In this document: positions 1,313-59,305 of the stretch, piece by piece
Numbering within the stretch: the first letter of the stretch is position 1
How the letters are laid out: each line of letters starts with the position of its first letter
NCBI GenBank assembly: GCA_030603245.1
Contig: JAUVYE010000001.1
Location: 1,418-65,417, forward strand
Origin: a bacterium
GTDB taxonomy: Bacteria; Patescibacteriota; Minisyncoccia; Minisyncoccales; DG-74-3
Length of the DNA: 64,000 bases
Direction: 5' to 3'
Program-made: the position numbers and the translations under genes
The notes under the pieces: generated by a model
Told to the model about the DNA's origin: nothing
Databases searched by the model: none
What the model saw: only the letters and a program-made list of their open reading frames with translations

Positions 1313-1330
1313 TTTCTAAAAATTTCTTAC

Positions 1331-4188: not shown

Positions 4189-4201
4189 ATTTTTTGTTTT
4201 T

Positions 4202-5404: not shown

Positions 5405-5422
5405 GTTGTTTTTAATAAAAGC

Positions 5423-5440: not shown

Positions 5441-5462
5441 CTGCCTTTAAGTATAACAAAGT

Positions 5463-7983: not shown

Positions 7984-8077
7984 AGGTTTAATTTTGAATT
8001 TTTTATTTTATAATTAATAATTATACTTTGACAAAAGTTTACTTGCAATTGTTAAAATTTTGTTTATCATCTAACTT

Positions 8078-10006: not shown

Positions 10007-10638
10007 TTATTTTTCCCTCTAAAATACCATTTAGGTCTGGCTCCTTTTAGAACTGGGATAAAGTGGGGCCATTGCTTAATAAAAATAGGTGTGGCTATTA
10101 AAACGCAAAGTAAAAAATATTCTGGAACTAAAAAATAACCGATTAAAGGCAAGAAAATATTTCCCATAAATTGACCGAAAAAAAACGTCTGAGTAGCTAA
10201 AACAAACAAAAGACAACTCAAAGCCCAGGGCAAAAATAACCACTTAAAGTTTAGGGTCATCAAAACTCCGGCTAAACATGCTTGGGCTTTGCCGCCAGAA
10301 AACTTATTGTCTTTAATCTTAAAATAAAGAGAAAAACAATGACCTAAAACTACTCCAAAACCAGCTAAGCTAATTGCCCAAACAAGATTATAATTTAAAC
10401 AAGTAAATTTTTGAGGAATTAAAACAGACAAAGCTCCTTTTCCTGTATCTACAAAAACAGTTAAAAGAAATAATAAAGGTTTTCCTGTTATTCGCATCAC
10501 ATTCATTGCTCCTACATTTTTAGATTCTTGCTTTCTAACATCTTTATTAACAGATTCTTTAACAATCAAATAAGCTGTGGGAAAAGAACCCAAAACATAG
10601 GCAAGGATAAAAAATAAAATTAAATAAATATTGAACAT
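10003..10638 (-). CDS. Second, divergent PlsY-family membrane protein
   Basis: LGSFPTAYLIVK N-terminal motif and a (S)KNVGAMNVMRITGK region resembling the PlsY GSGNxGATNxxR motif. 211-aa polytopic protein. Confidence 0.5.
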   Translation of the reverse strand: MFNIYLILFFILAYVLGSFPTAYLIVKESVNKDVRKQESKNVGAMNVMRITGKPLLFLLTVFVDTGKGALSVLIPQKFTCLNYNLVWAISLAGFGVVLGHCFSLYFKIKDNKFSGGKAQACLAGVLMTLNFKWLFLPWALSCLLFVLATQTFFFGQFMGNIFLPLIGYFLVPEYFLLCVLIATPIFIKQWPHFIPVLKGARPKWYFRGKNK

Positions 10639-10643
10639 ATTTT

Positions 10644-12317
10644 TTAGTGGTTATTAATAACGGTCCAGGAAACAATTAAACTCCCAGAATCCATGTCCAA
10701 AGAGCTGGAATTGGTAAAAGAAACTTCGGCCTGAATCTCTTTAAGTTTATTTTTCAATTTCTTTGCTTCTTCTAAATTCTCACAATGAGTAATAACTATT
10801 CTGATTTTTCTGCCCTGTTTTCGATACTTTCTGCTTCTTAGTTTTATTTCCCTGAATATTGCGTTTGAAACATCTTTTGTCATTAGGTGAATTCCATTCT
10901 TAATTATTTTTCCTCTCTTAATGCCGAACAATGGTTGAGCTCCAATTCTTTGTAATCTTTTTGCCCACCTAACTTGAGAGTATGAAATTTTGCTTATTTT
11001 TTTTATTTTCTCAAGTTTGGACAAAAACAAATAAGTATGAATATGAGAAATTGTTTTGTTTAATTCTTTAATAACCTCTTGGATTTCTCTTTGTTCTTTA
11101 ATCAGTTCAATTGCTCTTAAAATTAAAAGGGCTTGGCCAGAACTAATATTAAAAGAGTTTAAAACATAAATTTTTGAAGGATCTTCTAATTTTGACCTTA
11201 CTTCCATGGCTTGATTATAGTCTGAAGAATCAGTAATGATTAAAACTTTTTTAAAGCTTTTGAGTTGTTCTTTATAAACTTCAAGAAAATTTTGAGACCT
11301 AACTATCTTAATTTTGTATCTTTCAATAATTTTTGCTGTTAAATCAGCTGTTTGATCAGTAATAATGCCAATAGAAACATCTTTTAATGAATCTTCCCCA
11401 ACTGCTTCTTTGGCCATATCTTCAATCCTCATATTTTCAATTCGACCAGCCTGTCTTATAAATTCTTTAACCTCGTCTATTAAATCAGTGTGAATATGAA
11501 TTTTCATTTTATTTTTAACCGTAACTATGTCTAAAGAATTGCCCAATTTTGACAATTTATCTTTAATCTCTTTTTCGCTAAATTTTGGATTCTTAATCAA
11601 AGCCACAATTTCATAACGGTTAGAAATAGTTTGAATAAACCTTTTTGCTTTTTCTGATGGTTTTTCTTTCCCCAACTCACGGATCGTTTTTATGTCTTTC
11701 TCTCCCTCAACTTCCAAAACTTCTAGAAAACTTTCAAGAATGATTAAAAAACCAAGGCCTCCAGCATCAACCACATTTGCTTTTTTCAAAATCTCCAGTT
11801 TTTCCTGAGTTTCTAACAATGCTTGATGAGCTTCTCCAGCTGCTTTTTCAAGAATAACAGCAATGTCTTTTTCGTTCTCAACCTGTTTTTCAAGACTTTG
11901 AGCAGTAGCTTTCATTACATCTAAAATAGTTCCCTCTTTTGGATTTTGAATGCTTTTCTCAGCCCTTTCAAACCCTTGCTTAAAAGCTTGGGTTAATTTA
12001 TGGGCATTAATTGATTTTTCGTTTCCAAAAACAGGCAAAAATCCAGCTAAAAAGCCGGTATAAATTATACCAGCGTTTCCTTGGGCTGCGATCATGGCTC
12101 CATCTAAAATAGCTTCTGAAATTTCGCCCAAATTATTAAAATCCCTGTTTTCAATTTGTTGTTTTATTCCTAATAAGGTATAAGCCAGGTTGGTTCCTGT
12201 ATCTTGGTCTGGCACTGGGAAAACATTAATCTTATTAATTTCTTGTTTTTCTTTCTCAACCCTTTCCCAGGAAAAAAGCATCATCTTTTTCAATTCCCTT
12301 TGAGTCAAATAATCCAT
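10644..12317 (-). CDS. DAK2-domain fatty acid kinase FakA / YloV-like protein
   Basis: Dak2 motif VFPVPDQDTGTN near the N-terminus and ~557-aa length, typical of the FakA/YloV family. Confidence 0.7.
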   Translation of the reverse strand: MDYLTQRELKKMMLFSWERVEKEKQEINKINVFPVPDQDTGTNLAYTLLGIKQQIENRDFNNLGEISEAILDGAMIAAQGNAGIIYTGFLAGFLPVFGNEKSINAHKLTQAFKQGFERAEKSIQNPKEGTILDVMKATAQSLEKQVENEKDIAVILEKAAGEAHQALLETQEKLEILKKANVVDAGGLGFLIILESFLEVLEVEGEKDIKTIRELGKEKPSEKAKRFIQTISNRYEIVALIKNPKFSEKEIKDKLSKLGNSLDIVTVKNKMKIHIHTDLIDEVKEFIRQAGRIENMRIEDMAKEAVGEDSLKDVSIGIITDQTADLTAKIIERYKIKIVRSQNFLEVYKEQLKSFKKVLIITDSSDYNQAMEVRSKLEDPSKIYVLNSFNISSGQALLILRAIELIKEQREIQEVIKELNKTISHIHTYLFLSKLEKIKKISKISYSQVRWAKRLQRIGAQPLFGIKRGKIIKNGIHLMTKDVSNAIFREIKLRSRKYRKQGRKIRIVITHCENLEEAKKLKNKLKEIQAEVSFTNSSSLDMDSGSLIVSWTVINNH

Positions 12318-12325
12318 ACAATGGT

Positions 12326-12979
12326 TTAGCGAATTTTTTCCTCAAACTCTTTTAAGATTTTAGCTGCTATGTCTTTACCCCCCAAACCAAAAGCAACACC
12401 AACAGCTATTACTATAGCGCCCACAAAACCAACAAAAATAGTTAAGATCAATGTAGGAGCTATCTGAAGCTGGTAAAGAATAGCTAAGGTAGCTAGGCTC
12501 CAAATTATCCAACGAATTATTCTTCCTAAAAACCGGGAGTAAGTTATTTTTTCTTCCTCTAAAACAGCAAACATAATCTTTTGAGAAAAATCAGCCAGAA
12601 AAACAGCAATAATAAAAATTAAACAAGCAACAAAAATATTAGGGAAATAACTGATTGTCTCACCTAAAAGCTGACTAAATTGAGGAAGCCCAATAATCTC
12701 AACTGAAGTCATTAAAAAGAGAATGACAAAAAAGCATCTAACTATATTTCCAAAAAACTGCACAGCATTAAAACGAATATCTGTCTCAAATAAACTTTCT
12801 TCAAAATTCAATCTTTTCAAAGCCTGATTCAAACGGATTTTGTCTAAGAATCGAACAACAATATTACCAGCCCACTTAGAAACTAAAAGACCAGTCAGAA
12901 AAACTAAGATTGCCCATAAAAGCTGGGGGAGATTTTCAACAAAGCTTTCTAAAAATAAGTTTAAAAAATCTTGTGCCAT
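12326..12979 (-). CDS. Hypothetical polytopic membrane protein (possible conserved-TM-helix / MscS-related)
   Basis: Several predicted TM helices and no recognisable catalytic motif. Confidence 0.3.
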   Translation of the reverse strand: MAQDFLNLFLESFVENLPQLLWAILVFLTGLLVSKWAGNIVVRFLDKIRLNQALKRLNFEESLFETDIRFNAVQFFGNIVRCFFVILFLMTSVEIIGLPQFSQLLGETISYFPNIFVACLIFIIAVFLADFSQKIMFAVLEEEKITYSRFLGRIIRWIIWSLATLAILYQLQIAPTLILTIFVGFVGAIVIAVGVAFGLGGKDIAAKILKEFEEKIR

Positions 12980-12994
12980 ATTTATTATTTTACC

Positions 12995-13552
12995 CTACCA
13001 TTTATTCTTAGACAAGCCCATTCTAAATCCTATTTGAGTAGCAGCAATGTGCAATACAAAAGTTAAAACTAAAAGCATTGTCCAAACTTTAAAATCAATT
13101 TTAATCTCAGAAAAAAGATTTAAGAAAAAACCTGCTCCAATCACATAATTAATCTGATCAAAAGGCATAAATTTTGCTCCTGGTTTTAAGTCTAAGCGTC
13201 TTTTAATAAAAGCAAAGAACAAGTCCCCAAAAACTGCGCCAAAAACCATTAAAAGGCCAAAATACAGGCCTATTTCTTGATAATTTAAAAGACTGATTTC
13301 TCTGGTTGAAACACAATTATTAAAAAGCCATTTTTGAAGAAAAAGAATTAAAATGCCAGCAATTGGACCCAAAATAAGACCACGCCAAGTTTTATGATTA
13401 CCCAATAAAGGACGCCCCTTAAACTCTTTTCCATTATCAATTGGTCGGTCAAAACAATTAAAAACCCTTAACGACGCGGTTAAAGAGGGGATCATATTAG
13501 TAAAGTAAGCTGGGAGAAAAAAATAAAAACAAGATAGGATAAATTTAAACAT
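12995..13552 (-). CDS. CDP-archaeol synthase (CarS)-like / CdsA-like CTP:lipid cytidylyltransferase, short form
   Basis: 185-aa polytopic protein with GNHKTWRGL and GDLFFAFIKRRL motifs resembling the K-x-W-x-G and GDL..S..KR signatures of CdsA/CarS cytidylyltransferases. Its length fits CarS rather than the ~270-aa bacterial CdsA. Confidence 0.5.
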   Translation of the reverse strand: MFKFILSCFYFFLPAYFTNMIPSLTASLRVFNCFDRPIDNGKEFKGRPLLGNHKTWRGLILGPIAGILILFLQKWLFNNCVSTREISLLNYQEIGLYFGLLMVFGAVFGDLFFAFIKRRLDLKPGAKFMPFDQINYVIGAGFFLNLFSEIKIDFKVWTMLLVLTFVLHIAATQIGFRMGLSKNKW

Positions 13553-13596
13553 AAAATTTCTTGAAATTAATATTTTCTAAAGGTAAAATAAAAAAG

Positions 13597-14277
13597 ATGA
13601 AAGCAGACTTACACGTTCATACTTGCTATTCTTACGATAGTATATCTTTGCCGCAAGAGATAGTCAAAGCTGCTCTTAAAAATGGTTTAAACTGCATTGC
13701 TATTTGTGATCATGGAGAAATAAAAGGTGCTCTTGAGGCCATTAAATTTGCTTTTAACAAACCAATTTTAATTATTCCTGGGATTGAAATAAGAAGTAAA
13801 CAGGGAGATATTTTGGGCTTGAATATTAGAAAAATAATTCCTAATGGGCTTTCAGTAAAGCAAACAATTAAACAAATTAAAAAAGCAGGAGGCTTTGTTG
13901 TTATTCCTCATCCTTTTGGATTTAATTGCTCTTTTAAAGGAATATTGGAAGATTTTATTGACTCAATCGATGCAGTAGAAGTTTTAAATACTAATATTTT
14001 TAAAAAAGACAATCAAAAAGCTTTAAAGTTTGCTAAAAAACATAATTTAGCCTTTATAGCTAGTTCTGATGCCCATAGTCCAGAATTTGTAGGTAGGGGA
14101 TATCTTGAAATTCCAGGTGACCAACTTTCTGTCCAACAAATTTTTCAACAAATTAAAAATAAAAATGTTAGAATCATTGGTCGAGAAACTAATATTTTTG
14201 AAAAGGGAATTGCTTTTTTAAAAAGAAATTTATGTAAAATTGAATATTATGTTAGCAGAAAAAAGAAAAAGCTTTAA
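13597..14277 (+). CDS. PHP-domain metal-dependent phosphoesterase (ORF may start at 13561)
   Basis: MKADLHVHTCYSYDS N-terminal His motif plus downstream His/Asp positions typical of the PHP family. Confidence 0.65.
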   Translation: MKADLHVHTCYSYDSISLPQEIVKAALKNGLNCIAICDHGEIKGALEAIKFAFNKPILIIPGIEIRSKQGDILGLNIRKIIPNGLSVKQTIKQIKKAGGFVVIPHPFGFNCSFKGILEDFIDSIDAVEVLNTNIFKKDNQKALKFAKKHNLAFIASSDAHSPEFVGRGYLEIPGDQLSVQQIFQQIKNKNVRIIGRETNIFEKGIAFLKRNLCKIEYYVSRKKKKL

Positions 14278-14848
14278 AAAGCTTGAAAACATGGTTGGGA
14301 AATTCTTTTCTAAGTTCTTAAATCCTAATCAGTATTCTTATTTGGCAATCTTAATGGCTTTATTGTGTCTTAGGTTTTTAATAAAAAACAATTTAAAGAT
14401 TGCTTTGATTTTTCTATTCACAGCTTCTTTTTTAGATTTTATAGATGGAGCAGTGGCCAGAAAAACCAATACTGCTTCTAAAAAAGGAGCTTATTTAGAC
14501 ACAATTTTAGATCGCTATGTTGAGGGAATGGTTTTGCTTGGATTTTTGTTTTTACCTTTGCCCAAAATATTTTTACCTGCCCATGTTTGGATATATCTGG
14601 CTTTATTTGGTTCTTTAATGACAACTTATGCTAAAGCTGCTGGAAAAGAAAAGGGAATACTACAAACAGAATTAAAAAAAGGAGTGATTGGTAGGGGAGA
14701 AAGAATGATTTTAGAGTTTTTAGCTATATTTTTAGGAATATTTAATCTCCAGTGGACATTGTATTTAATTATTGTCCTATCTGTCCTATCTAATCTGACT
14801 GCTGTCCAAAGAATTTGTCTTATTCTGCATACCAAGCAACAGCCATAG
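14240..14848 (+). CDS. CDP-alcohol phosphatidyltransferase family protein (polar head-group transferase)
   Basis: Perfect signature D-x2-D-G-x2-A-R-x8-G-x3-D-x3-D in DFIDGAVARKTNTASKKGAYLDTILD. Membrane protein. Confidence 0.8.
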   Translation: MNIMLAEKRKSFKKLENMVGKFFSKFLNPNQYSYLAILMALLCLRFLIKNNLKIALIFLFTASFLDFIDGAVARKTNTASKKGAYLDTILDRYVEGMVLLGFLFLPLPKIFLPAHVWIYLALFGSLMTTYAKAAGKEKGILQTELKKGVIGRGERMILEFLAIFLGIFNLQWTLYLIIVLSVLSNLTAVQRICLILHTKQQP

Positions 14849-15701
14849 ATCCGGGCCCAACAATGCTTCCTATTATCTCATCAAGTAGATTTGCTGCAAC
14901 TATTTCTGTATTTTCCATATCTTTTTGAATCAAGTCTTGTAGTTTTTGACAAGCTTCAGGTGCTAAAGCATGAGAAATAAATATTTGAATTCTTTTACCC
15001 TCTTTTCTGTATTTTCTTGATTTTGACTCTATTTCCTTAAAAAGCGCTTCAGCTACATCTTTTACTCCTATTTTAATGCTTATTGGTTTAAGCACTCCTT
15101 TTTTCATGCCTAACAAGGGCCTTAACCCAATATTAGACATTTTACGAATCCAATTAGCTATAATTGAAGATATTCTGCCTGATGCTTCTAACCATTTAGG
15201 ATCTTTAAGCGCAACATAAAGAAAAGTTTTTGGAATAAGTTGTTCAAGTTCTTTTACAATTTCTTCTATTGGCTTATCTTGATTCACAAGATCAATTGCT
15301 TTTAAAACAATCAACCCCTCTCCAGCAGCAGCACTAAGCGTATCAACAATGAAAACTTTATTCTCTTGTTCTTCTGGTAAAAAACTTTTTGCCTGAATAG
15401 CTGAATTATATGTTCCTGACAGTTTTGAGGTAACAGTAATACAAATAAGCTTTTCGAATTTTTCTAATTGTTTCTTATAAAGATCCAAGTAAGCTTTTGG
15501 AGATGGTTGAGAGGTTTTACAGAAAACCTTTATTCCTCTCTTATCTGCTTCTTTCATTCTGTGAAAAACAGTCTCGCCTGGCAGACCTTCTATTTCTGGG
15601 GGCCATTCTACCTTAAGAGGAACCACTGCTATTTGATGTTTTTCTATAATATCTGGAGTTAAATCAGCCCCTTCGTCAATAACTAAACCAATTTTATTCA
15701 T
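14820..15701 (-). CDS. DegV-family fatty-acid-binding protein (FakB-like)
   Basis: DegV fold signature: N-terminal IGLVIDEGADL... and ~290 aa. Confidence 0.8.
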   Translation of the reverse strand: MNKIGLVIDEGADLTPDIIEKHQIAVVPLKVEWPPEIEGLPGETVFHRMKEADKRGIKVFCKTSQPSPKAYLDLYKKQLEKFEKLICITVTSKLSGTYNSAIQAKSFLPEEQENKVFIVDTLSAAAGEGLIVLKAIDLVNQDKPIEEIVKELEQLIPKTFLYVALKDPKWLEASGRISSIIANWIRKMSNIGLRPLLGMKKGVLKPISIKIGVKDVAEALFKEIESKSRKYRKEGKRIQIFISHALAPEACQKLQDLIQKDMENTEIVAANLLDEIIGSIVGPGSMAVAWYAE

Positions 15702-15731
15702 AGTTTTTTAATTATTAATTATTATTTATTG

Positions 15732-15803
15732 TGGACCCGAGGGGAGTTGAACCCCTGACCCCTGCAATGCGAGTGCAGTGCTCTGCCACTGAGCTACAGG
15801 CCC
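15732..15803 (-). tRNA. tRNA-Ala (anticodon CGC)
   Basis: 72-nt cloverleaf on the minus strand with a G3:U70 pair in the acceptor stem (the Ala identity element) and anticodon loop CTCGCAT. No CCA is encoded. Confidence 0.8.
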
Positions 15804-15805
15804 TG

Positions 15806-17254
15806 CTACTTTACCCAGTATTTGTCTTTAGTCATTTTATCCTGTTTCATTTCAACATTTTCAACCTCTTTTTTAGCTTTTTGGGCAACAAGTTTTAATT
15901 CTTTTTCCGACAATTTACCTAACTTTTTAATTTCTTTTTCTAAAAATTCTTTTTTATTCTTGTTTGGCTCTTCTAGGACATAACCTAATAAGACATTCAA
16001 AATTTGTCCTATTTGAGGTCCTGGTTTAATATTCAGGATTTTCATTATATCATTACCTGAAACTTTTAACATTTTGACTGAAATTGGATCTTGAGACACT
16101 TTTTCAATAACATACTCTAAATGTCTTAATTTATATGGTTTGGCCTTGGGACAACCAGAACCAATACGATCAGCCATTCTTAATTGAATCAACTCCTCTA
16201 TATTTTCTAAACCAACATTTCTTACTAATTTCCTAACTGAACTTTGTCCTACCTCATCTGGATGATAATAAAAAAGATGATATCTTACTAATTTAGTAAT
16301 TTTTTTAATATCTTTTTCAGAGAATTTTAAACGTTTTAAAATCTGCTTTGTCATTTTTGCGCCCTCTATTTCATGGGAATAAAAAGTAGCTTCCAATCCT
16401 TTACCTCTTTTTGTTTTGGGCTTTCCAATATCATGAAATAAAGCAGCTAATCTAACATATTTGTTAAAGTTTTTTTGGGCTGCATATTCTAAAGAACGCA
16501 AATAATGATCATAACAATCATAAATATGATGTTTATTCTGAGCTATGTTATAGCCCTGCTCTAATTCAGGAACAATATATTTTAAAAGATTAAGCTTTCT
16601 TAAAAGCTCAATACCTTTGGCTGCGCTTTCAGACATAATGATTTTTAAAAACTCATCTCTTATCCTTTCTTGAGAAATGTGTTTAAGTAAAGCAGAATTC
16701 TTTTTGATTGCTTGACCTGTTTTTTCTTCAATTTTAAAGTTTAAACTGGTAGCAAATCTTACTGCTCTTATCATTCTTAAAGCGTCTTCTGAAAATCTTT
16801 TTTCTGGATTACCAACCGCTCTAATTGTTTGCTTTTTTAAATCTTTTTGGCCCTCAAAAGGATCAATAACCTTTAATTCACTATCCATTGCCATGGCATT
16901 AATAGTAAAATCTCTTCGAGCTAAATCTTGTTTAAGACTCTGAGCAAACTTAACTATATCAGGATGGCGTTTGTCACTATATTTTGCTTCAGAACGATAA
17001 GTGGTAATTTCAATTTCTTTTAATTTAGGATTCTTACTTTTGGTCTGGACAGTAACGGTTAAAAACTTATTTTCGCAGAAACTTTGTGGGAATATTTTTT
17101 GAATCTTTTTTGGCTTAGCATCAGTAGTAACATCCCAATCATTTGGTTCTTTTTCTATTAAAAAATCCCGAACACAGCCCCCAACAATATAAGCTTCAAA
17201 CCCAGCTTTTTTTAGTTTAGAAACAATAGATTGTACTTGTTTGGGAATTAACAT
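15806..17254 (-). CDS. cca: CCA-adding enzyme / tRNA nucleotidyltransferase with HD domain
   Basis: N-terminal polymerase-beta-type nucleotidyltransferase motif GGCVRDFLI...DWDV and a downstream HD-domain His/Asp pattern. Confidence 0.8.
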   Translation of the reverse strand: MLIPKQVQSIVSKLKKAGFEAYIVGGCVRDFLIEKEPNDWDVTTDAKPKKIQKIFPQSFCENKFLTVTVQTKSKNPKLKEIEITTYRSEAKYSDKRHPDIVKFAQSLKQDLARRDFTINAMAMDSELKVIDPFEGQKDLKKQTIRAVGNPEKRFSEDALRMIRAVRFATSLNFKIEEKTGQAIKKNSALLKHISQERIRDEFLKIIMSESAAKGIELLRKLNLLKYIVPELEQGYNIAQNKHHIYDCYDHYLRSLEYAAQKNFNKYVRLAALFHDIGKPKTKRGKGLEATFYSHEIEGAKMTKQILKRLKFSEKDIKKITKLVRYHLFYYHPDEVGQSSVRKLVRNVGLENIEELIQLRMADRIGSGCPKAKPYKLRHLEYVIEKVSQDPISVKMLKVSGNDIMKILNIKPGPQIGQILNVLLGYVLEEPNKNKKEFLEKEIKKLGKLSEKELKLVAQKAKKEVENVEMKQDKMTKDKYWVK

Positions 17255-17255
17255 A

Positions 17256-17326
17256 CCCCGTAGTAGAATTTTGACAAATTATTATTTATTGCGTTGCCCC
17301 GCAACAGTCAAAATTTCACTACGGGG
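17256..17326. repeat. Long near-perfect inverted repeat (20-bp arms, 31-nt spacer containing a nested GC hairpin) abutting the cca start codon
   Basis: Arm CCCCGTAGTAGAATTTTGAC pairs with GTCAAAATTTCACTACGGGG (one dinucleotide swap). The spacer contains GTTGCCCCGCAAC. The element ends 2 nt from the minus-strand AUG of cca. Confidence 0.5.
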
Positions 17327-17349
17327 CATAATTTTATTCTAACTCCAAA

Positions 17350-17365
17350 CCTTGCTTTTTTCAAT
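17350..17365. promoter_or_regulatory. Copy 1 of the repeated 16-mer CCTTGCTTTTTTCAAT (on minus strand TTGAAA -35-like, 17-nt spacer, TAGAAT -10-like)
   Basis: An identical 16-mer occurs again at 18961-18976. Both copies lie upstream of minus-strand transcription units. Confidence 0.35.
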
Positions 17366-17439
17366 TATTTCAATTTATTTATTAATAAAAAAATAGGTCG
17401 AATATTGTTTGTTATTTCGACCTTATTTTGGATGGAGCT

Positions 17440-18150
17440 TTAGATTTTCTTTTCCTCTATCCTTAACCCAGTCTCAAATGGAAGCATTGGTTTCTTTTCA
17501 GCAAGAATGGCAAACTTTTTTGGCAGCTTTGAGATATCCTCTACTCTTAAATATTTACCACCAGTAATTTTAGCAATTTCTTTAAGTAGATCTTCATCGA
17601 AGCTCTCACTCCCTTCACCTATCCCAATAGTATCGACAATCACGCCAAATTTTTTAAGAAGCTGGGCTTCTTCAAGGCTTCTTCCTGGATCACCCGGACC
17701 GTTGGCACAGCCATCAGAGAGAAGAATAATTCGAGGTTGCTTTCTCGCTTTTCTGCTATGGCTAAGAATTTCTCTAGACAGGGAGAGAGCATGACCCATT
17801 GCTGTTGCACCACTGATTTCAAGCTCTGAAACTTCTTTCTTGATTGAATTTTGATTATTGGTGAGATCGAAGAGTTTGCGGGCAGGATCATCAAAGACCA
17901 CTATTGCTGTTTGATCACGGATATCAATTCCAATTTTAGCCAAAACAAACTTTAGGATTGCTTTCTTGAGAGTTTTTATCTTCTCTCCTGTCATGCTACT
18001 TGAAATGTCGAGGCAAAGTACTACATCTTCTACTCTTTCCTGTAATCTATCGATAACATCTAGGCTTCGGGTTCTTAATCCTGCTAAGATTTCTCTTTGT
18101 TGAACTTTGACTATTGCTTTGCTCTTTTTTCTTTTCACTATCGCCCTCAT
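17440..18150 (-). CDS. von Willebrand factor type A (vWA) domain protein
   Basis: MIDAS motif DISSSMTG plus downstream vWA-fold features. Confidence 0.75.
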   Translation of the reverse strand: MRAIVKRKKSKAIVKVQQREILAGLRTRSLDVIDRLQERVEDVVLCLDISSSMTGEKIKTLKKAILKFVLAKIGIDIRDQTAIVVFDDPARKLFDLTNNQNSIKKEVSELEISGATAMGHALSLSREILSHSRKARKQPRIILLSDGCANGPGDPGRSLEEAQLLKKFGVIVDTIGIGEGSESFDEDLLKEIAKITGGKYLRVEDISKLPKKFAILAEKKPMLPFETGLRIEEKKI

Positions 18151-18155
18151 TGAAA

Positions 18156-18890
18156 TTACATCCTTATCCCGATTTTTAGATCGTACTCTCTTCTCTTTGC
18201 TGGATTACTTAGAACCTTGTAAGCTTCAGTAATTTTTTTCATCATTTCCTCAGCCTGTTTTTTAACCCATTCTTTTGAACCTGGTGATTGACTGTCTGGG
18301 TGATATTCCTTGGTCTTTTGGTGGTATCTTTGCTTAATTTCTTCTTGATTAGCTTCCGGAGAAATATCTAAAATCTCATAATAGGTCTCTTTCAGCCTTT
18401 CTTCTTCTTTTGAAATTGGAATATTTAGGATTTCTGCCTGTTCTTGAAAACTTAGAATCATTGCCTTAGCTTCTTCATAGGAAGTTTCTTCAGCCTCAAA
18501 CTCTTGAAGAGAATTGAGAAGTTCTACCTCCAAGATTTTCAGTCCAGCCAGAATCTCTGGTCTTCTAGTGGTCAAGATAGCTTTTTTAATCAAGCTCTTT
18601 GTTGTAGAAAAGAGATTTTTGATCTCCTTTCTTTCTCTTTCTCTTTGTCTCTCTATTCTTTTTATCAAGGAAGAAATCTCTGCTTCAGCCCTTGCCAGTC
18701 CTCCTGGAACCTGAAGTCTTGAAACTATTGAAGATAGCTCTTGGCCAAATCCATCAGAATTTAAGGACCCCAGCTCCTCTTTTAGTTCCTCGAGTCTAGA
18801 AGTCCTTATCTGGTACTCTTTAAGTATTTCTTCGAAACGCTCCATCGGTGTTTTCTTAAATTTCCCTATCACATCCCGAACCCTCTGCAT
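18156..18890 (-). CDS. J-domain (DnaJ-like) protein with N-terminal coiled-coil region
   Basis: C-terminal J domain YYEILDISPEANQEEIKQRYHQKTKEYHPD with the invariant HPD tripeptide. No Zn-finger or DnaJ C-terminal domains. Confidence 0.7.
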   Translation of the reverse strand: MQRVRDVIGKFKKTPMERFEEILKEYQIRTSRLEELKEELGSLNSDGFGQELSSIVSRLQVPGGLARAEAEISSLIKRIERQRERERKEIKNLFSTTKSLIKKAILTTRRPEILAGLKILEVELLNSLQEFEAEETSYEEAKAMILSFQEQAEILNIPISKEEERLKETYYEILDISPEANQEEIKQRYHQKTKEYHPDSQSPGSKEWVKKQAEEMMKKITEAYKVLSNPAKRREYDLKIGIRM

Positions 18891-52393: not shown

Positions 52394-53365
52394 ATGGCAC
52401 CCAAAAAGATAAAACGTCTTATTATCATAGATGCTAATTCAATAATTCATCGAGCTTTTCATGCCTTACCTCCTTTAACCAATAAAAAAGGCGAGCAAAT
52501 TGGTGCTGTCTACGGTTTTTTATTGGCTTTTTTTAAATCTATGAAAGATTTTAAACCAGACTTTGTTGCAGCCTGTTTTGATGTTCATGCCCCAACGTTT
52601 CGTCATAAAAAGTTTAAACAATATAAAGCCAAAAGGCCACCTGCTCCAAAAGAATTGTATAGTCAGATTCCTAAAGTGAAAGAAGTTTTAGCGACCCTGA
52701 AGGTGCCTGTTTTTGAAAAAGAAGGTTTTGAGGCAGACGATATTATAGGAACTATTGCTAAATTAGCTCCCCGAAAACAAGTGATTCCTAAGTTAGAAAC
52801 AATTATTTTAACTGGAGACAGAGATGCTTTACAATTAGTAAACTCTAAGACAAAGGTATTTGCCTTAAGCAGAGGAATTAAAAACGCTATTTTGTATAAC
52901 CAAAGTCAAGTGCAAGAAAAGTATGGGATTTCTTCTCAACAAATTATTGATTATAAAGCATTAAAGGGAGATGCCTCTGACAATATTCCCGGAGTTACTG
53001 GTATTGGAGATAAAACTGCTGTTAAGCTTCTTCAGCAATTTGAAAGCTTAGAGAATTTATATCAAGAACTTGAAACTAGTTCGGAAAAAGCCAAAGAAAT
53101 CAAACCCAAGTTAAGAGAGTTATTATTACAATACAAAGACCAGGCATTTTTAAGTAAATTCTTAGCTACTATTAATCAAAATGTCCAAATAGATTTTAAT
53201 TTGCAGAAATGTAAATGGGGGAGGTATGATATGAAACAAATTTCAAAAACATTTGAAGAAATAGGTTTGTATAGTTTAATAAAAAGATTATCAGAATTAG
53301 ACAATAATATTGTAAACCAGACAGAACCGAAAAAAAGAATTAAAAAGAACCTAAGATTATGGTAA
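52394..53365 (+). CDS. Stand-alone 5'-3' exonuclease / flap endonuclease (Pol I N-terminal domain-like)
   Basis: PIN-like 5'-nuclease motifs (LIIIDANSIIHRAFHA, TGDRDALQL) plus an HhH motif (IPGVTGIGDKTA). Confidence 0.8.
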   Translation: MAPKKIKRLIIIDANSIIHRAFHALPPLTNKKGEQIGAVYGFLLAFFKSMKDFKPDFVAACFDVHAPTFRHKKFKQYKAKRPPAPKELYSQIPKVKEVLATLKVPVFEKEGFEADDIIGTIAKLAPRKQVIPKLETIILTGDRDALQLVNSKTKVFALSRGIKNAILYNQSQVQEKYGISSQQIIDYKALKGDASDNIPGVTGIGDKTAVKLLQQFESLENLYQELETSSEKAKEIKPKLRELLLQYKDQAFLSKFLATINQNVQIDFNLQKCKWGRYDMKQISKTFEEIGLYSLIKRLSELDNNIVNQTEPKKRIKKNLRLW

Positions 53366-53387: not shown

Positions 53388-54221
53388 ATGAAAAACAATA
53401 ACAAGCAGTCATTTAAAGAATTCGAAGTTTTTACAGGAGAAGAAGAAAAACGATTTCTTAACCAACTTGCGCTCGGCGATCTTTTTTTCTTGGCAGCCAC
53501 TTTGATTTTGATGATTCTTTCTGAGAATATTTTTCATATGAATATTTTTGGTTGGAAACAATACTGGATTCTATTCTTTGCTAATGCGATATTTTTTAGT
53601 TATTTTATTTTGGCTTTGAAGAAGAATTTTAAGGTTTGGTTGCTAAAATATCTTTTAGCAATTTCTGTTCCCATACTATTTGGAGGATGGATTTATTTTT
53701 CAGATCCAGCATATGTTAAAGTATTGTTTGGCGGTCCTACAGTGGCGCTGGCAATGATTGGTTTTATTTTCTATAATTCCCAGCTTCTTTTAATAACTTC
53801 TTTAATAACCGCTGTTACGTATTGGTTTTTGATTTTCAATTTTTCGAGAGTTGGTTCTCCCTTAAAACCTTACGAGACTTACTTGATCTATATGTTTCTT
53901 ATGATGGGAACAATACTCTATTTTGCCCTAATAGAAAGAACCAAAATCTTTTTAAAAGAACTTTTAAAAATAAGAAGTGAGCTTCAGGGGGCAAAAACTG
54001 TGCTAGAAATAAAAGTTAAAGCAAGGACAGAAGAATTAGAAGAACTAACTAAAACACTTGACCAGAAAGTTGGGCAAAGAACCAAAGAGGTAGAAGAAAG
54101 TAAAAAGATTTTAGAAAAAAGAGTTGATGAGCTTGAAAGATTGCATAAGCTTACTGTTGGTAGAGAACTTAAGATGTTAGAGTTGAAAAAGGAAATTAAA
54201 ATATTAAAAGGAAAAAAATAA
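53388..54221 (+). CDS. Polytopic membrane sensor-like protein ending in a conserved signalling coiled-coil tail (no kinase domain)
   Basis: About 6 TM helices, then a ~70-aa helical tail ...KVGQRTKEVEESKKILEKRVDELERLHKLTVGRELKMLELKKEIKILK. This is near-identical in pattern to the tail of the 55066-55995 protein. Confidence 0.4.
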   Translation: MKNNNKQSFKEFEVFTGEEEKRFLNQLALGDLFFLAATLILMILSENIFHMNIFGWKQYWILFFANAIFFSYFILALKKNFKVWLLKYLLAISVPILFGGWIYFSDPAYVKVLFGGPTVALAMIGFIFYNSQLLLITSLITAVTYWFLIFNFSRVGSPLKPYETYLIYMFLMMGTILYFALIERTKIFLKELLKIRSELQGAKTVLEIKVKARTEELEELTKTLDQKVGQRTKEVEESKKILEKRVDELERLHKLTVGRELKMLELKKEIKILKGKK

Positions 54222-54249
54222 AAAATTAAAAATTAATATATTAAAAAAC

Positions 54250-55041
54250 ATGATAAAAAAAAGCACTATTTTAATAATCTTTGCAATTCTTATCAGCACA
54301 ATAATTCTCCTTAACAGGGACAAGCCATCTTTAGAAAATGCTCAAGATCCTCTTTTGAAAGCAATTCAAGACCGGGGTGAAATTATTATAGGCACTGATG
54401 CTACTTATCCACCCATGGAAAGTATTGATGAACTGGGAAATTTTTTAGGCATGGACATAGATATAGCTAATGAAATTGCATTAGATCTTAATGTGAAAGC
54501 AAGTTTTGTAAACATTGCCTGGGAAGATATTTTTGATGCAGTAAGAGAGAGCAGGGTAGACATAATAATATCTTCCATTACCATAACCAGCGAGAGGATT
54601 AGGATTATGGATTTTTCCGACCCTTATTTTAATGCCGGTCAAGTAGTTATTGTTAAAATAGGCATTAAAGATATTGAAGGAGTAGAAGACCTAAAGAACT
54701 ATAATGTAGGTGTTCAACTAGGAACAACTAGTGAGCAGGAAGTTAAAAAATATGTTAGTGACCCATCTTTTATAAAGACCTATGAAAATTATTATATAGC
54801 TAAAAATGATTTATTGAATGGAAAAATTGATGCTATTGTAACTGATTATCCAGGAGCAGTTGGATTAATAGCTCAAGAAGAAAGTTTAGAGATAGTAGGG
54901 GAACCTTTTACTCAAGAATTTTATGGTGTAGTTATACAAAAAGATCAACAGGTTTTGCTTACTCAAATTAATAACACTATAAGGCGCCTTAAAAGAGAAG
55001 GAAAGTTTAAGGTTTTAGAGCAAAAGTGGTTGGTTCAATAA
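54250..55041 (+). CDS. Family-3 solute-binding protein (amino-acid-type periplasmic binding domain), lipoprotein/anchored
   Basis: SBP_bac_3-type motifs (IIIGTDATYPPME, DIIISSITITSERI). No ABC transporter permease or ATPase gene is adjacent. Confidence 0.7.
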   Translation: MIKKSTILIIFAILISTIILLNRDKPSLENAQDPLLKAIQDRGEIIIGTDATYPPMESIDELGNFLGMDIDIANEIALDLNVKASFVNIAWEDIFDAVRESRVDIIISSITITSERIRIMDFSDPYFNAGQVVIVKIGIKDIEGVEDLKNYNVGVQLGTTSEQEVKKYVSDPSFIKTYENYYIAKNDLLNGKIDAIVTDYPGAVGLIAQEESLEIVGEPFTQEFYGVVIQKDQQVLLTQINNTIRRLKREGKFKVLEQKWLVQ

Positions 55042-55065
55042 ATAAAACCAAAATTTGTTTTTTTA

Positions 55066-55995
55066 ATGACAATTAAACTTAATCTTCAGTTTAAATTACT
55101 TATTGCTGTTGCTACAGTTATTATTGTGGCTCTAGTTAGCTTGGGTTATCTTACTATCAAGACCCAAGAAGAATTTTATCAGACTCTTTTTCAGGATTCA
55201 GCTATTACTTTGGCTCAGGCATTAGATGCTGGCATTGGTAGTAAAGAAGAACTAAAAGATATTAGTAAGCTGCAATCTGATATTTATAAAACCATATGGC
55301 TTAATTCTAATATTGTACAGATTAGTATTAGCTTACCTACGGATCATGGTTTCCGGATTGTGGCATCTAATAACACTTCTTTAATAAACACTATTGCAAT
55401 TCCAGAGTATCTATCCTCTTATCAAGAAGGAGTAATTTTAACGCATATCTTAACTGATATAGATGGGAAGAGAATATTTAGAGTGATTACTCCGGTTCAT
55501 GTAGGGGGTCAGCGAGTTGGGACATATGATTTAAGGTTGTCATTAGAGTCTTCGGAAAAAAACATTACTGAAACACAAAACATACTTTTATTTGGTGTAC
55601 TAATAACTATTTTAATAATTATCTATACACTTTCTCTTTTGATAAAAAAGACAGTAATAGTTCCGATTAAAGAATTAGAAAAAGGAATTAAAAGAATAGG
55701 TGCCGGTGATTTAGATTATAGAATAGATATTGGCGGAGGAGATGAAATGGAAAACTTGGCTTTTGGGCTTAATGTAATGGCTTCTAAATTAAAAAATAGA
55801 AAAGAAGACTTAGCAAGAGAAAAAACATATTTAGAAGAAAAAGTTAAACAAAGAACAAAAGAGCTTCAAGAAAGAGTTAACGAGCTAGAAAGTTTTCATA
55901 AATTAACCATAGACAGAGAGTTAAAAATGATAGAATTAAAAGATGAGATTAAGAGATTAAAAGTAAAAAAACAAAAAAGGTCGAAAAAATTATAA
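55066..55995 (+). CDS. Membrane sensor with extracytoplasmic domain and HAMP domain, ending in the same coiled-coil tail (no output domain)
   Basis: TM1, a ~150-aa extracytoplasmic region, TM2, a HAMP domain (GDLDYRIDIGGGDEMENLAFGLNVMASKL), then the tail KVKQRTKELQERVNELESFHKLTIDRELKMIELKDEIKRLK. Confidence 0.55.
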   Translation: MTIKLNLQFKLLIAVATVIIVALVSLGYLTIKTQEEFYQTLFQDSAITLAQALDAGIGSKEELKDISKLQSDIYKTIWLNSNIVQISISLPTDHGFRIVASNNTSLINTIAIPEYLSSYQEGVILTHILTDIDGKRIFRVITPVHVGGQRVGTYDLRLSLESSEKNITETQNILLFGVLITILIIIYTLSLLIKKTVIVPIKELEKGIKRIGAGDLDYRIDIGGGDEMENLAFGLNVMASKLKNRKEDLAREKTYLEEKVKQRTKELQERVNELESFHKLTIDRELKMIELKDEIKRLKVKKQKRSKKL

Positions 55996-56023
55996 TTAAA
56001 AGAAGAAATTTATAAATGTATAT

Positions 56024-57214
56024 ATGATTAAAGCAGGTATAGGAAAAAGTAATAATCCCGATGCTTTTAAAGCCGGAGCTGAAGCATGTGAGCAAGCTAT
56101 GAAGCAAATTAGTGGAGAACCAAAATTTATTCTAGCTTTTTCTACAGTTTCCTACGACCAAGAAAAGGCTCTTGAGGGAGTAAGATCCGTATCTGGTCAG
56201 GTCTCTTTGGTGGGATGTAGCGATGCTGGAGAAATTACTACTGAAGGACCAGTATTAAAACATATAGTTGTTATGGCCCTTGATTCATCTGATATTGGGT
56301 GGACAATTGGGGTGGGAAAAGGCACAATCAAAGATTCTTTTCAAGCAGGAAAAGAAGCAGCTGAAAGTGTGAAAAGTAATGCCAAGAAACCAATTTCTTT
56401 GTTTATAATGCTTTTAGATGGTTTGTCAGAAAATGGAGCAGCAGCAGTAAGAGGGGCTCAGGAGGTTTTAGGGAAAAATTTTCCCATTATGGGTGGTTCA
56501 GCGGGAGATGATTTTCTTTTTGAAAAAACCTATCAATATCACAATGATAAAGTTTTAAATGATACTGTTATAGGAATAGGGCTTTCTGGAGAATTCTCTT
56601 TTGGTGTAGGAGTGCGGCATGGTTGGGAACCAATTGGTCTACCAATGAAAGTCACAAAAGCCGAAGGAGCAAAATTAATTGAAATAGATGATCGTCCTGC
56701 CCTTTCTATTTACGAGGACTATTTTGGTAAAAAGGCCGAAGAATTAACTAAAGAGCCGATTGCCAAAATGGCTTATACTTATCCTTTGGGAATGAGCGTT
56801 AAGGGAAGTTCCGAGCTTTTGATTCGAGATGTGGTGATTGCTAATGAAAAAGGAGAAATTAATTGCGCGGCTGAAATTCCCCAAGGGGTTGAGATTCGAT
56901 TAATGTTAGGAGATTCAGAAAAAGCCATTCAAGCTGCTAGAGAAGCAGCAGAAGGAGCTCTAGCTCAACTTAAAGGAGTAAAACCAAAAGTGATTTTTGT
57001 ATTTAATTGCATAGCAAGATGGAAGCTCTTGGGACCAAAAATAGGGGAAGAGATTAAAGTTATTCAAGAAGTTTTAGGAAAAGAAGTTCCTTTGATTGGT
57101 TTTTATACTTATGGAGAGATAGCTCCGCTGGGAGGATTGTTAGGTTCAGAGTGCTTTTCCGTATTTCATAACGAAACAATGACTCTACTCGTCTTGGGAG
57201 AAAAAAATCAATAA
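56024..57214 (+). CDS. FIST-domain sensory protein (FIST_N + FIST_C)
   Basis: Begins GIGKSNNPDAFKAGAEA... with overall FIST architecture (~396 aa). Confidence 0.65.
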   Translation: MIKAGIGKSNNPDAFKAGAEACEQAMKQISGEPKFILAFSTVSYDQEKALEGVRSVSGQVSLVGCSDAGEITTEGPVLKHIVVMALDSSDIGWTIGVGKGTIKDSFQAGKEAAESVKSNAKKPISLFIMLLDGLSENGAAAVRGAQEVLGKNFPIMGGSAGDDFLFEKTYQYHNDKVLNDTVIGIGLSGEFSFGVGVRHGWEPIGLPMKVTKAEGAKLIEIDDRPALSIYEDYFGKKAEELTKEPIAKMAYTYPLGMSVKGSSELLIRDVVIANEKGEINCAAEIPQGVEIRLMLGDSEKAIQAAREAAEGALAQLKGVKPKVIFVFNCIARWKLLGPKIGEEIKVIQEVLGKEVPLIGFYTYGEIAPLGGLLGSECFSVFHNETMTLLVLGEKNQ

Positions 57215-57255
57215 ATTCTAAGGTTTTAGTGCAAGAAGATTAAAGCAAGAATATT

Positions 57256-58536
57256 ATGGTAAGGTTTTTAGGTTTTGGCTTCAACGGTAAAAAAACAAAA
57301 AAGCAGATTAAAACAATAGAAGAACTGGATAGAATTGCTAAAAAGCTTATCCGAAGGGATTTAGAATTGTCTTTAATACGAGAAAAAAGAGAAAAAGAAT
57401 TTAAAGAAATTGAAGCCAAGACAAAAGACTTAGAAGAGGCCAGAAAAGGATTGCTGAATATGTTGGAAGATGTAGCGGGGTCAAGGAGAGAAGTAGAAGA
57501 AGAAAGAAATAAAACCTTAGCAATTATTAGTAATTTTACTGACGGCCTTTTGGTTTTTGATGAACAAAAAAGACTTTCTTTAATTAATCCCCAGGCAGAG
57601 AAGTTTTTAGGAATTAAATCAAAGAAGGTTATTGGCAAAACAATAAGCGCAATAGGTAGAATGTCGAGTCTTAAAGGGTTAGTAAAACTGTTAGGTAAAG
57701 AAATTAATCCTATTTTTAGGAAAGAACTGGAAGTAAAAGACGATTTGGTTTTAGAGGTTTCTGTTCTTGCCATATCAAGAGAAGAGCAAATTGAAAACTT
57801 AGTGGTTTTGCACAACATTACTCGAGAGAAATTAGTTGAAAGAATGAAAACAGAGTTTGTTTCTATTACTGCCCATCAACTCAGGACTCCGTTGTCGGCA
57901 ATCAAGTGGACGCTTAAGATGTTATTAGATGAAGATTTAGGAAAAATTACCGAAGAGCAAAGAGAGTTTATTGAAAAAACATATCAATCAAATGAAAGAA
58001 TGATTAGTTTAATCAATGATCTTCTAAACGTTACTAGAATAGAAGAAGGTAGATATGTTTATAATCCTGTTTTGTCTAACATAACAAAGTTAGTTGAATC
58101 TTTAATAGACCAATATAAAGACGAGATTAGTATAAAAAATATTAATCTTGAGTTTAAAAAACCAAAGAAACAACTACCTAAAGTATTAATAGATGTTGAA
58201 AAAATCAATTTGGCTGTTCAAAATCTTTTAGACAACGCCATTCAATATAATAAGCTTGGAGGTAGTATAAAGATTTCTCTTAAATCTAATAAAAAGGAAA
58301 TTGAATTCAGTATTGAAGATTCTGGGGTTGGAATTCCTAAAAAACAAGAAAAAAGGATATTCACGAAATTTTTCCGCGCAGCCAATGTTATGAGAATGGA
58401 TACTAGAGGCTCAGGTCTCGGGCTGTTTATTGTTAAGAATATAATTGAAGCTCACAAGGGTAGAATTTGGTTTAAATCCAAAGAAAGAAAGGGTACAATT
58501 TTCTACTTCACCTTGCCTGTTCCTATTTACAAATAA
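57256..58536 (+). CDS. Soluble sensor histidine kinase (N-terminal coiled coil, PAS, HisKA, HATPase_c)
   Basis: H-box ITAHQLRTPLSAIKW. N, G1 and G2 boxes (LLDNAIQYN, DSGVGIP, GSGLGL). No TM segments. N-terminal LNMLEDV-type coiled coil. Confidence 0.85.
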   Translation: MVRFLGFGFNGKKTKKQIKTIEELDRIAKKLIRRDLELSLIREKREKEFKEIEAKTKDLEEARKGLLNMLEDVAGSRREVEEERNKTLAIISNFTDGLLVFDEQKRLSLINPQAEKFLGIKSKKVIGKTISAIGRMSSLKGLVKLLGKEINPIFRKELEVKDDLVLEVSVLAISREEQIENLVVLHNITREKLVERMKTEFVSITAHQLRTPLSAIKWTLKMLLDEDLGKITEEQREFIEKTYQSNERMISLINDLLNVTRIEEGRYVYNPVLSNITKLVESLIDQYKDEISIKNINLEFKKPKKQLPKVLIDVEKINLAVQNLLDNAIQYNKLGGSIKISLKSNKKEIEFSIEDSGVGIPKKQEKRIFTKFFRAANVMRMDTRGSGLGLFIVKNIIEAHKGRIWFKSKERKGTIFYFTLPVPIYK

Positions 58537-58562
58537 GTTTTAATAAATTAAAATGAATTAAT

Positions 58563-58934
58563 ATGGCTAAGAAAATTTTAATTATAGAAGACGAAAAAAT
58601 CATCTGTGATCTTCTGGAGAGAAAGTTAACAAGAGAAGGATATAGCGTGGTAATAGCCACTAATGGAATAGATGGTTTGGTTAAGATGAGAGAAGATCGA
58701 CCAGACATTGTTTTGTTAGATATTATCATGCCTAAAATGGGAGGGTTTGAAGTAATGGAAGAAATGAATAAAGATGAGACGTTAAAAGACATTCCAGTAA
58801 TTGTTGTTTCTAATTCTGGTCAGCCAGTAGAGATTGATCGGATTAAGAAAATGGGCGCTAAAGATTGGTTGATAAAAACTGAATTTGATCCTCAGGAGGT
58901 GCTGGAGAAAGTGAAAAAACAAATAGGAATTTAG
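58563..58934 (+). CDS. Single-domain response regulator (CheY-like receiver)
   Basis: Receiver motifs (ILIIEDE, DIVLLDIIMP, K in KDWLIK). No output domain. Confidence 0.8.
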   Translation: MAKKILIIEDEKIICDLLERKLTREGYSVVIATNGIDGLVKMREDRPDIVLLDIIMPKMGGFEVMEEMNKDETLKDIPVIVVSNSGQPVEIDRIKKMGAKDWLIKTEFDPQEVLEKVKKQIGI

Positions 58935-58942
58935 TTTATTTT

Positions 58943-59305
58943 ATGAAGAAAATTTTGATAGTTGAAGACGACAAGTTTTTAAGGGAGTTGATTGCTCGAA
59001 AGGTTATTGATGAAGGCTTTGATGTTTCTGAGGCGATTGGTGGAGAAGAAGGAATTAAAAAAATCAAAGAAGAAAAACCAGACATGGTTTTACTAGACCT
59101 TATTTTACCTGGTATAGATGGTTTTGAAGTGTTGGCCCGCATGAAAGAAGATCCAGCTTTATCTTCTATTCCGGTAATTATTTTCTCTAATTTGGGTCAA
59201 AAGGAAGATATAGAAAAGGGGTTGAAATTAGGAGCAATAGATTATCTAATTAAGGCCCATTTTACCCCTGGCGAAATTATTGAAAAGATTAAAGCTAATT
59301 TATAA
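58943..59305 (+). CDS. Single-domain response regulator (CheY-like receiver), second copy
   Basis: Receiver motifs (ILIVEDD, DMVLLDLILP). No output domain. Confidence 0.8.
   Translation: MKKILIVEDDKFLRELIARKVIDEGFDVSEAIGGEEGIKKIKEEKPDMVLLDLILPGIDGFEVLARMKEDPALSSIPVIIFSNLGQKEDIEKGLKLGAIDYLIKAHFTPGEIIEKIKANL

Follow-up and report, generated by a model that had tools for sequence, protein, structure and literature searches.

We analyzed a gene cluster at positions 53388-59305 of a 64,000-nucleotide stretch of bacterial DNA (contig JAUVYE010000001.1; hereafter the window), in which two membrane sensors without a kinase domain end in the same conserved C-terminal helix, termed the tail, and a single soluble histidine kinase is encoded downstream. 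A preliminary description of this DNA had proposed a histidine kinase split at the signaling helix, with both sensors serving the one kinase. That several kinase-less sensors would serve one soluble kinase in this way is well supported by comparison with related loci, because single-chain fusions of the same parts exist, a kinase gene follows the tail genes, an N-terminal kinase motif (LNxLED) is specific to these kinases, and sampling from the kinase side leads back to tail genes. In the fuller reading the cluster would be a modular two-component system in which the tail acts as a plug and the LNxLED motif as its socket, and to this we assign a probability of roughly 65%.

Sensor 1 (277 amino acids; 53388..54221, + strand) was found to have about six transmembrane (TM) segments by hydropathy, with hydrophobic segments at amino acids 23-183, followed by an S-helix-type coiled coil and the tail; no Pfam domain was found in it. 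Sensor 2 (309 amino acids; 55066..55995, + strand) consists of a TM helix, a beta-rich periplasmic alpha/beta domain, a second TM helix, a HAMP domain (PF00672, E=4.8e-13), an S-helix and the tail. Hydropathy, Pfam and AlphaFold2 (AF2) models thereby agreed with the topologies first read from the letters. The tails of the two sensors are homologous (36/70 identical residues, 51%; BLASTP E=7e-15), and a tail hidden Markov model (HMM) matched only these two proteins in the window (E=7.5e-26 and 1e-28, respectively). The whole tail comprises amino acids 224-277 of sensor 1 (54057-54218, + strand) and 256-309 of sensor 2 (55831-55992, + strand). Its core, the last 28 residues or so, is amino acids 247-274 of sensor 1 (54126..54209, + strand; DELERLHKLTVGRELKMLELKKEIKILK) and 272-299 of sensor 2 (55879..55962, + strand; NELESFHKLTIDRELKMIELKDEIKRLK), with the consensus E-L-E-x-F-x-K-L-T-V-(G/D)-R-E-L-K-M-I-E-L-K-x-E-I. 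The stop codon of sensor 1 lies 3 amino acids past the core, and both chains end within 3-10 amino acids of it. Neither sensor carries the same-chain transmitter of a sensor histidine kinase, as no HisKA or HATPase_c domain was found in either (Pfam, E<=0.1), and the earlier claim of a shared tail with no transmitter behind it therefore stands. MCPsignal (PF00015) was likewise not found in either sensor, and no CheA or CheW was found among the open reading frames (ORFs) of the cluster.

The S-helix is a coiled coil of about 40 residues with a central (E)RT motif, located between two signaling domains (Anantharaman, Balaji and Aravind, 2006; PMC1592074). Both sensors contain the motif (VKARTEELEEL and GQRTKEVEE in sensor 1, VKQRTKELQE in sensor 2), and in neither does it lie between two signaling domains, since the chain ends after the tail. 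In the AF2 model of sensor 2 (mean pLDDT 85), amino acids 227-308 were predicted as one uninterrupted helix that starts in HAMP, continuous with HAMP AS2, at a pLDDT of about 85-91. Some sensor 2 orthologues were found to have one or two extra S-helix segments (LEIKVKARTKELEEL...) inserted between HAMP and the tail, so that the length of the stalk varies between orthologues and the tail is fixed.

The kinase (57256..58536, + strand) is soluble, with no TM segment, and consists of an N-terminal helix, a PAS domain, HisKA (PF00512, E=8e-18) and HATPase_c (PF02518, E=7.8e-29), as had been described; its H-box, TAHQLRTPL, is at amino acids 205-213. Its N-terminus was, like the tail of sensor 2, predicted as an uninterrupted helix of about 80 residues (amino acids 15-94; mean pLDDT of the model 80). 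This helix holds two motifs, a DRIAK motif at amino acids 21-49 (57316..57402, + strand; IEELDRIAKKLIRRDLELSLIREKREKEF) and one LNxLED unit at amino acids 59-79 (57430..57492, + strand; LEEARKGLLNMLEDVAGSRRE). The latter is the only match to the LNILED HMM in the window (E=1.6e-5), and its residues L66, N68, L70 and D72 were invariant in 82 homologues. Directly 3' of the kinase are two single-domain response regulators, which consist of REC only, of 123 amino acids (58563..58934, + strand; PF00072, E=2.6e-23; DIVLLD acceptor region) and 120 amino acids (58943..59305, + strand; PF00072, E=6.7e-26; DMVLLD acceptor region).

For both sensors, fused versions in which sensor, PAS and HisKA lie on one polypeptide, which the preliminary description had suggested searching for, were found. 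Kinase-fused proteins from four related loci (L088, L089, L090, and L127) share 52-71% identity, in their N-terminal part, with amino acids 1-240 of sensor 1; the L088 protein (P0283, 600 amino acids) matches sensor 1 amino acids 1-240 at 62% and the window kinase amino acids 25-422 at 71% identity. Protein P0347 (634 amino acids) matches sensor 2 amino acids 15-275 with its N-terminal half (39% identity, E=6e-58), continues with ...KELEETRIALMNMLEDIEEARKGAEEEKNKTLAII... and then has PAS-HisKA-HATPase_c, its LNMLED-PAS-kinase region being 64% identical to the window kinase. The junction was the same in both fusions. The sensor homology runs to the end of the RT-x-E-L...E-L-E S-helix, and past this point the split proteins have the tail, whereas the fused proteins have LNxLED, which starts exactly where the tail starts. 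Tail sequence is absent from the fused forms. Fusions of this kind are classic evidence that sensor and kinase work together.

In L088 and in L089 (3619-4467 and 4461-5852) a tail form lies directly upstream of a kinase-fused form with the same 6-TM domain, each about 70% identical to sensor 1. These adjacent paralogues suggest that a duplication of only the sensor half of a fused kinase gave rise to the split form. Protein P0367 (736 amino acids) is a dCache membrane sensor fused to a DRIAK-like motif and then LNMLED-PAS-kinase, which means that the DRIAK element can also follow a covalently attached sensor.

The tail was found to be widespread. An exhaustive profile search over 1.84 billion protein cluster representatives gave 8,645 clusters at E<=1e-3, of which 767 reached E<=1e-10; when the 54-residue tail alone was run against an index of 5.8 billion proteins only two fragments were returned, the E-value scale of that search being too harsh for so short a query. 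The tail ended no more than 25 amino acids from the C-terminus in 145 of the 150 top matches, and in the remaining five it was followed by low-complexity sequence or a second tail copy; P0076 and P0135 have two tandem copies with a low-complexity linker between them. Tail ORFs from 83 related loci stopped within 21 amino acids of the motif in 117/120 cases. A kinase domain was found in none of the 150 top tail proteins and in none of 117 tail ORFs of the related loci. The modules in front of the tail were PAS, GAF, Cache, dCache-HAMP, HAMP, 7TM (HisKA_7TM-type), PocR-PAS, REC-GAF-PAS, and Cys-cluster/TM, and the proteins ranged from a single PAS domain (about 190 amino acids) to Cache-PAS arrays of 1,415 amino acids. 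Some of them are named methyl-accepting chemotaxis protein by JGI.

In a collection of genomes, the tail was present in phyla of the candidate phyla radiation (CPR), Bacteroidia, Omnitrophota, Nitrospirota, Acidobacteriota, Chloroflexota, Planctomycetota, and Margulisbacteria, in delta-, beta- and alphaproteobacteria, and, among archaea, in DPANN lineages, Altiarchaeales, and Thermoplasmatales. Carriers that exist in culture include Duganella violaceipulchra (L063), Ramlibacter albus (L076), and Perlabentimonas gracilis (L016). The residues G/D-R-E, K-M and E-L-K of the tail, which do not follow the heptad, were nearly invariant across phyla of both bacteria and archaea. Neither the tail nor the LNxLED motif is covered by any Pfam or NCBIfam family, and no credible PDB match was obtained for the tail or the LNxLED repeats by sequence or profile. 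A weak match to NCBIfam NosR was rejected as generic coiled coil.

The tail genes were found to be linked to kinase genes. A kinase ORF was located within 500 bp of a tail ORF in 47/83 loci and within 3 kb in 65/83. For 73 tail-gene clusters at least 3 kb of sequence was available downstream, and 58 of these were followed by a histidine kinase gene no more than 2.1 kb away, almost always on the same strand and often abutting or overlapping the tail gene in another frame.

The kinases downstream of tail genes share the LNxLED motif, which consists of one to six tandem 21-residue units directly before the PAS domain or DHp, with the consensus E-E-(S/T)-(Q/R)-x-A-L-L-N-I-L-E-D-x-x-x-E-(R/K) and variants such as AMLYMVEDL and ATLNILEDI. 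It occurs with HisKA as well as with HisKA_2/HWE kinases. The motif was present in 55/66 of the first kinases after a tail gene, compared to 2/64 of the other kinases in the same loci (Fisher p=6e-23), and both of these two were likewise located downstream of tail genes. The association was also examined in reverse, in metagenome contigs picked by the N-terminal kinase motif. Upstream sequence of at least 2.5 kb was available for 41 of these loci; in 37 of them between one and four tail genes precede the kinase on its strand, and in 34 a tail gene lies no more than 1.5 kb away. The association therefore runs in both directions, at least within the CPR-type family that includes the window. The module that we propose is a sensor that ends no more than 25 amino acids past the tail together with a kinase that is encoded downstream on the same strand and has LNxLED N-terminal to PAS or DHp, and the window has this arrangement.

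A few observations bear on a contact between the two motifs. The tail core has a net charge of +0.8, and the LNxLED motif one of -1.9 per unit. In 66 of 68 unique tail/kinase pairs, position 21 of the tail is K/R and position 12 of the kinase motif is E/D; in the remaining two the charges are swapped, with Glu at the tail position and Lys/Arg at the motif position. From this we predict that K292 of sensor 2 or K267 of sensor 1 would pair with E71 of the kinase. Raw mutual information, computed between columns of the tail and of the kinase, mainly reflected the variable columns and was uninformative. An apparent covariation in Bacteroidia, of the tail sequence RMKELR with AMLYMVED in the kinase, was found not to be general, as an RMRELK tail occurs with a normal N-type motif in L164. 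An intramolecular plug in cis was not supported either, since the AF2 monomer models were straight helices with no hairpin between DRIAK and LNMLED.

In the mechanism we propose, the input modules of the system would be on separate polypeptides. Each sensor dimer would end in a long helix, the last 28 or so residues of which form the plug, and the 80-residue helical stalk of the kinase would carry the socket, A-L-L-N-(I/M)-L-E-D, just before PAS. Plug and socket would bundle and thereby rebuild non-covalently the continuous signaling helix of the single-chain relatives. A conformational change in either sensor would then pass to the PAS/DHp/CA core and adjust the phosphorylation of the two CheY-like receivers, and the FIST protein described below would be a third input acting through the separate DRIAK motif on the same stalk.

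The FIST protein is encoded between sensor 2 and the kinase (56024..57214, + strand) and is a soluble FIST_N+FIST_C protein (PF08495, E=1.9e-49; PF10442, E=9e-33), possibly a NosP-like accessory sensor. Pfam confirmed it, together with the two REC-only receivers that lack an output domain, as the preliminary description had named them. As in the NO-sensing NosP/NahK pairs, a FIST_N+FIST_C gene lies beside a kinase gene, which here starts 41 nt downstream; the protein scored 104 bits against NCBIfam NosP (NF041558), for which the cutoff is 450, and thus falls below the level of NosP orthology. A FIST gene was found between tail gene and kinase also in L006, L009, L022, L084, and many other loci. 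Kinases related to that of the window have the DRIAK motif, with the consensus E-(L/M)-D-R-I-A-K-M-L-V-R-R-D-(L/F)-E-L-S-E-I-R-E-K-R-E, on the N-terminal side of LNMLED, either once or as two or three tandem copies. The motif was present in 23/25 kinases with a FIST gene directly upstream compared to 4/79 without (p=7e-17), and the FIST-less kinases have a PAS domain or nothing in its position. The link between DRIAK and FIST is correlative.

It was initially suggested that the sensor tails form a heteromeric coiled coil with amino acids 21-49 of the kinase, i.e., with DRIAK and not with LNMLED. The profile of the DRIAK family (ELDRIAKMLVRRDLELSEIREK) does align to that of the tail family in the register originally given (hhalign), and DRIAK is conserved, is located on the same long helix as LNMLED and is repeated in relatives. 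The alignment is, however, weak (P=0.0016, 16% probability, 24 columns), BLASTP between tail and kinase was not significant (E=1.2 to 25), and the tail HMM did not match the window kinase even at E<=10. Furthermore, DRIAK is absent in 79/104 LNxLED kinases, including all proteobacterial and acidobacterial examples, and tracks with FIST adjacency, whereas LNMLED tracks with tails. We consider a pairing of the tails with DRIAK unlikely. In our reading, amino acids 21-49 would be a tail-like stalk element tied to FIST input, and LNMLED the element tied to the tails.

Alternatively, the tail could be the target of the phosphorylated CheY-like receivers or of another common partner, in which case the sensors would be downstream effectors or feedback points. 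The two output-less REC proteins in the operon do need targets, REC genes are located near tail and kinase genes in most loci, and fusions of REC to the tail exist. On the other hand, REC genes accompany most kinases regardless of tails, and the specific correlate of the tail is the kinase motif. In the fusions, the sensor modules precede the kinase core on a single chain, and the charge swap ties the tail to kinase residues. This makes a role of the tail as a receiver target quite improbable. REC domains were found to precede the tail in P0237 (1207 amino acids), L066 (1752-2339), L018, L062, L042, L008, and L020; because of this arrangement, the tail could serve as the output through which a response regulator feeds a second kinase.

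It is about as improbable that the tail is an autonomous terminal coiled coil for homo-oligomerization or localization without a specific partner, and that its proximity to kinase genes merely reflects the general clustering of signaling genes. The tail is predicted as a plain long helix, and about 20% of tail genes have no kinase nearby. Two loci assigned to Paceibacterota, L029 (4877-13387) and L035 (5475-10636 and 16668-18796), contain seven or eight paralogous 7TM-tail genes in tandem, and no kinase was found within the 20-kb locus. The nearly invariant non-heptad residues nevertheless exceed what a generic coiled coil needs, and general clustering explains neither why LNxLED is restricted to the first downstream kinase nor the reverse association.

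That the sensors are truncated kinase remnants, produced by a frameshift or an assembly artefact, can be practically dismissed: full-length fused relatives do exist, but the tail is distinct, conserved and absent from them and ends at a stop codon in 117/120 ORFs and in thousands of clusters, no kinase-like frame follows either stop in the window, where the next genes begin 28 nt on, and orthologues of 85-95% identity keep the same ends. This settles the concern about a frameshifted remnant raised at the outset. Programmed frameshifting or readthrough that joins tail and kinase was rejected as well, given the mixed frame relations and the whole genes (FIST, V4R-like, solute-binding protein) that can intervene.

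Several points weigh against the plug-and-socket reading. About 20% of the tail-gene clusters have no kinase in reach, including that of an orthologue 58% identical to sensor 2, and the gene linkage of tail and kinase is therefore not obligatory; elsewhere, a PAS-tail gene was found with no kinase within 10 kb. Tail genes distant from a kinase are compatible with docking in trans, yet a role independent of the partner is also possible. No recognizable LNxLED motif was found in 11/66 of the downstream kinases. The loci were collected by means of motif patterns and share phylogenetic history, so that the Fisher tests measure consistency and their p-values overstate independence. Kinase, REC and FIST proteins were detected with ad hoc HMMs that had been built iteratively, starting from the proteins of the window. 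The complementarity in net charge is modest (+0.8 vs. -1.9). Both charge-swapped pairs come from one lineage, the Margulisbacteria (two metagenome-assembled genomes), and therefore probably represent effectively one evolutionary event. The direct contact between tail and LNxLED, its geometry and the direction of regulation are what we infer from these comparisons.

The remaining gene of the cluster encodes an SBP_bac_3 solute-binding protein (54250..55041, + strand; PF00497, E=1.9e-36), either membrane-anchored or secreted, with an N-terminal hydrophobic segment at amino acids 1-25 as the anchor. It had been regarded as an orphan, a view contradicted by synteny, as the order of a binding protein gene followed by a HAMP-tail gene is kept in L001/L002 beside the 58%-identical sensor 2 orthologue; the contig there is 453 kb long, and the locus has no kinase within 10 kb of it. 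Since this pairing persists even where there is no nearby kinase, the binding protein most likely delivers its ligand to sensor 2. Pairs of the LuxP/LuxQ type provide a model for a binding protein that hands its ligand to a sensor. A periplasmic binding protein gene was found in the FIST position at some other loci. In many CPR loci that position, between the tail gene and an LNMLED kinase, is occupied by a protein of about 200 amino acids with a weak match to V4R (E=0.0036), which may be another accessory sensor; examples are L011 (1097-1732), L013 (10191-10799), L017 (10154-10756), and a tandem pair in L164 (9141-9743 and 9749-10342).

The seven ORFs of the cluster (delimited stop-to-stop) are all on the + strand with intergenic gaps of 8-41 nt, and due to this tight spacing they probably form one operon. 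The base composition is about 32% G+C, and the homologues are named Nealsonbacteria and Patescibacteria, both of which suggest a CPR bacterium as the source. Upstream, at 52394-53365, is a stand-alone 5'-3' exonuclease with both Pfam exonuclease domains and without a polymerase domain; in a related CPR locus (L164, 5708-7954) the same exonuclease is fused to DNA_pol_A. Within positions 1-24000 of the window, the long ORFs at 725-18890 are all on the - strand, and from 19013 on they are mostly on the + strand. This switch near 19 kb coincides with a minimum of the cumulative GC skew at about 18-20 kb and with three tRNA genes (15731, 19015, and 19563), a pattern that resembles a replication origin region. 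Matches to the DnaA box, however, were not enriched (16 found vs. 16.6 expected).

Single-chain S-helix sensor kinases (PMC1592074) have the same domains in the same order, and the first half of the tail is an S-helix-type coiled coil with RT-x-E-L; the fused homologues of the two window sensors belong to this ordinary class of kinases. In the window, by contrast, nothing follows the helix in the sensor chain, whose last 28 residues constitute a conserved motif of their own, and the kinase has a reciprocal one. As with NosP (FIST)/NahK and H-NOX/HnoK, where a soluble sensor encoded beside the kinase controls it non-covalently, the FIST protein of the window is in that position. NosP and H-NOX are, however, globular stand-alone sensors that have no shared docking peptide, whereas the tail is a portable terminal helix found on many different sensor modules, and its counterpart can be recognized as a motif in the kinase. 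Arrays of methyl-accepting chemotaxis proteins, CheW and CheA also have kinase-less TM HAMP receptors, many per kinase, and long helical bundles, but the cluster lacks MCPsignal, CheW and a CheA-type kinase, and the kinases concerned are ordinary HisKA or HisKA_2 kinases. In polyketide and non-ribosomal peptide synthases, docking domains pair a C-terminal helix of the upstream protein with an N-terminal coiled coil of the downstream protein. These domains join modules that are fused elsewhere, as tail and LNxLED would do; the sequences and the process are unrelated, and the likeness is an analogy only. In split histidine kinases (CheA3/CheA4; Hik36-Hik43) one kinase function is likewise spread over two polypeptides (PMC3591291; PMC7656254). 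The transmitter of the window kinase is, in contrast, intact, with DHp and CA on one protein, and the split lies between input and transmitter. In the published split kinases, among them CheA3/CheA4, Hik36-Hik43 and those of Amin et al. 2013, the split is reportedly inside the transmitter, with the phospho-acceptor (DHp or P1) and catalytic (CA) parts on separate proteins.

Full-text searches on the motifs and on the concepts of split kinases and kinase-less sensors returned nothing on this system, and a description beyond the searched literature is possible. We rate the portable C-terminal sensor plug and the reciprocal kinase socket as a new form of two-component signaling. Whether tail and LNxLED repeat are a universal plug-and-socket pair by which bacteria and archaea couple interchangeable separate sensors (PAS, HAMP, Cache, 7TM, and even phosphorylatable REC) to dedicated histidine kinases we consider an even bet; kinases with several 21-residue LNxLED units would then dock several sensors at once and integrate many inputs.

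Prokaryotes encode large numbers of PAS, HAMP and Cache proteins in which no output domain can be recognized, and whose annotation goes no further than PAS domain S-box protein or HAMP domain-containing protein. Should the tail dock LNxLED kinases, thousands of such output-less PAS and HAMP proteins would become inputs of identifiable kinases, and the integration of many sensors by one kinase would be predictable from sequence. Transmission along the signaling helix could also be studied across a non-covalent joint, with the natural fused and split versions as controls. If two short helical motifs suffice for coupling, they would be useful in biosensor engineering, as a natural portable connector for rewiring two-component systems. 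CPR bacteria and DPANN archaea, in which the tail system is prominent, have small genomes with few conventional signaling proteins.

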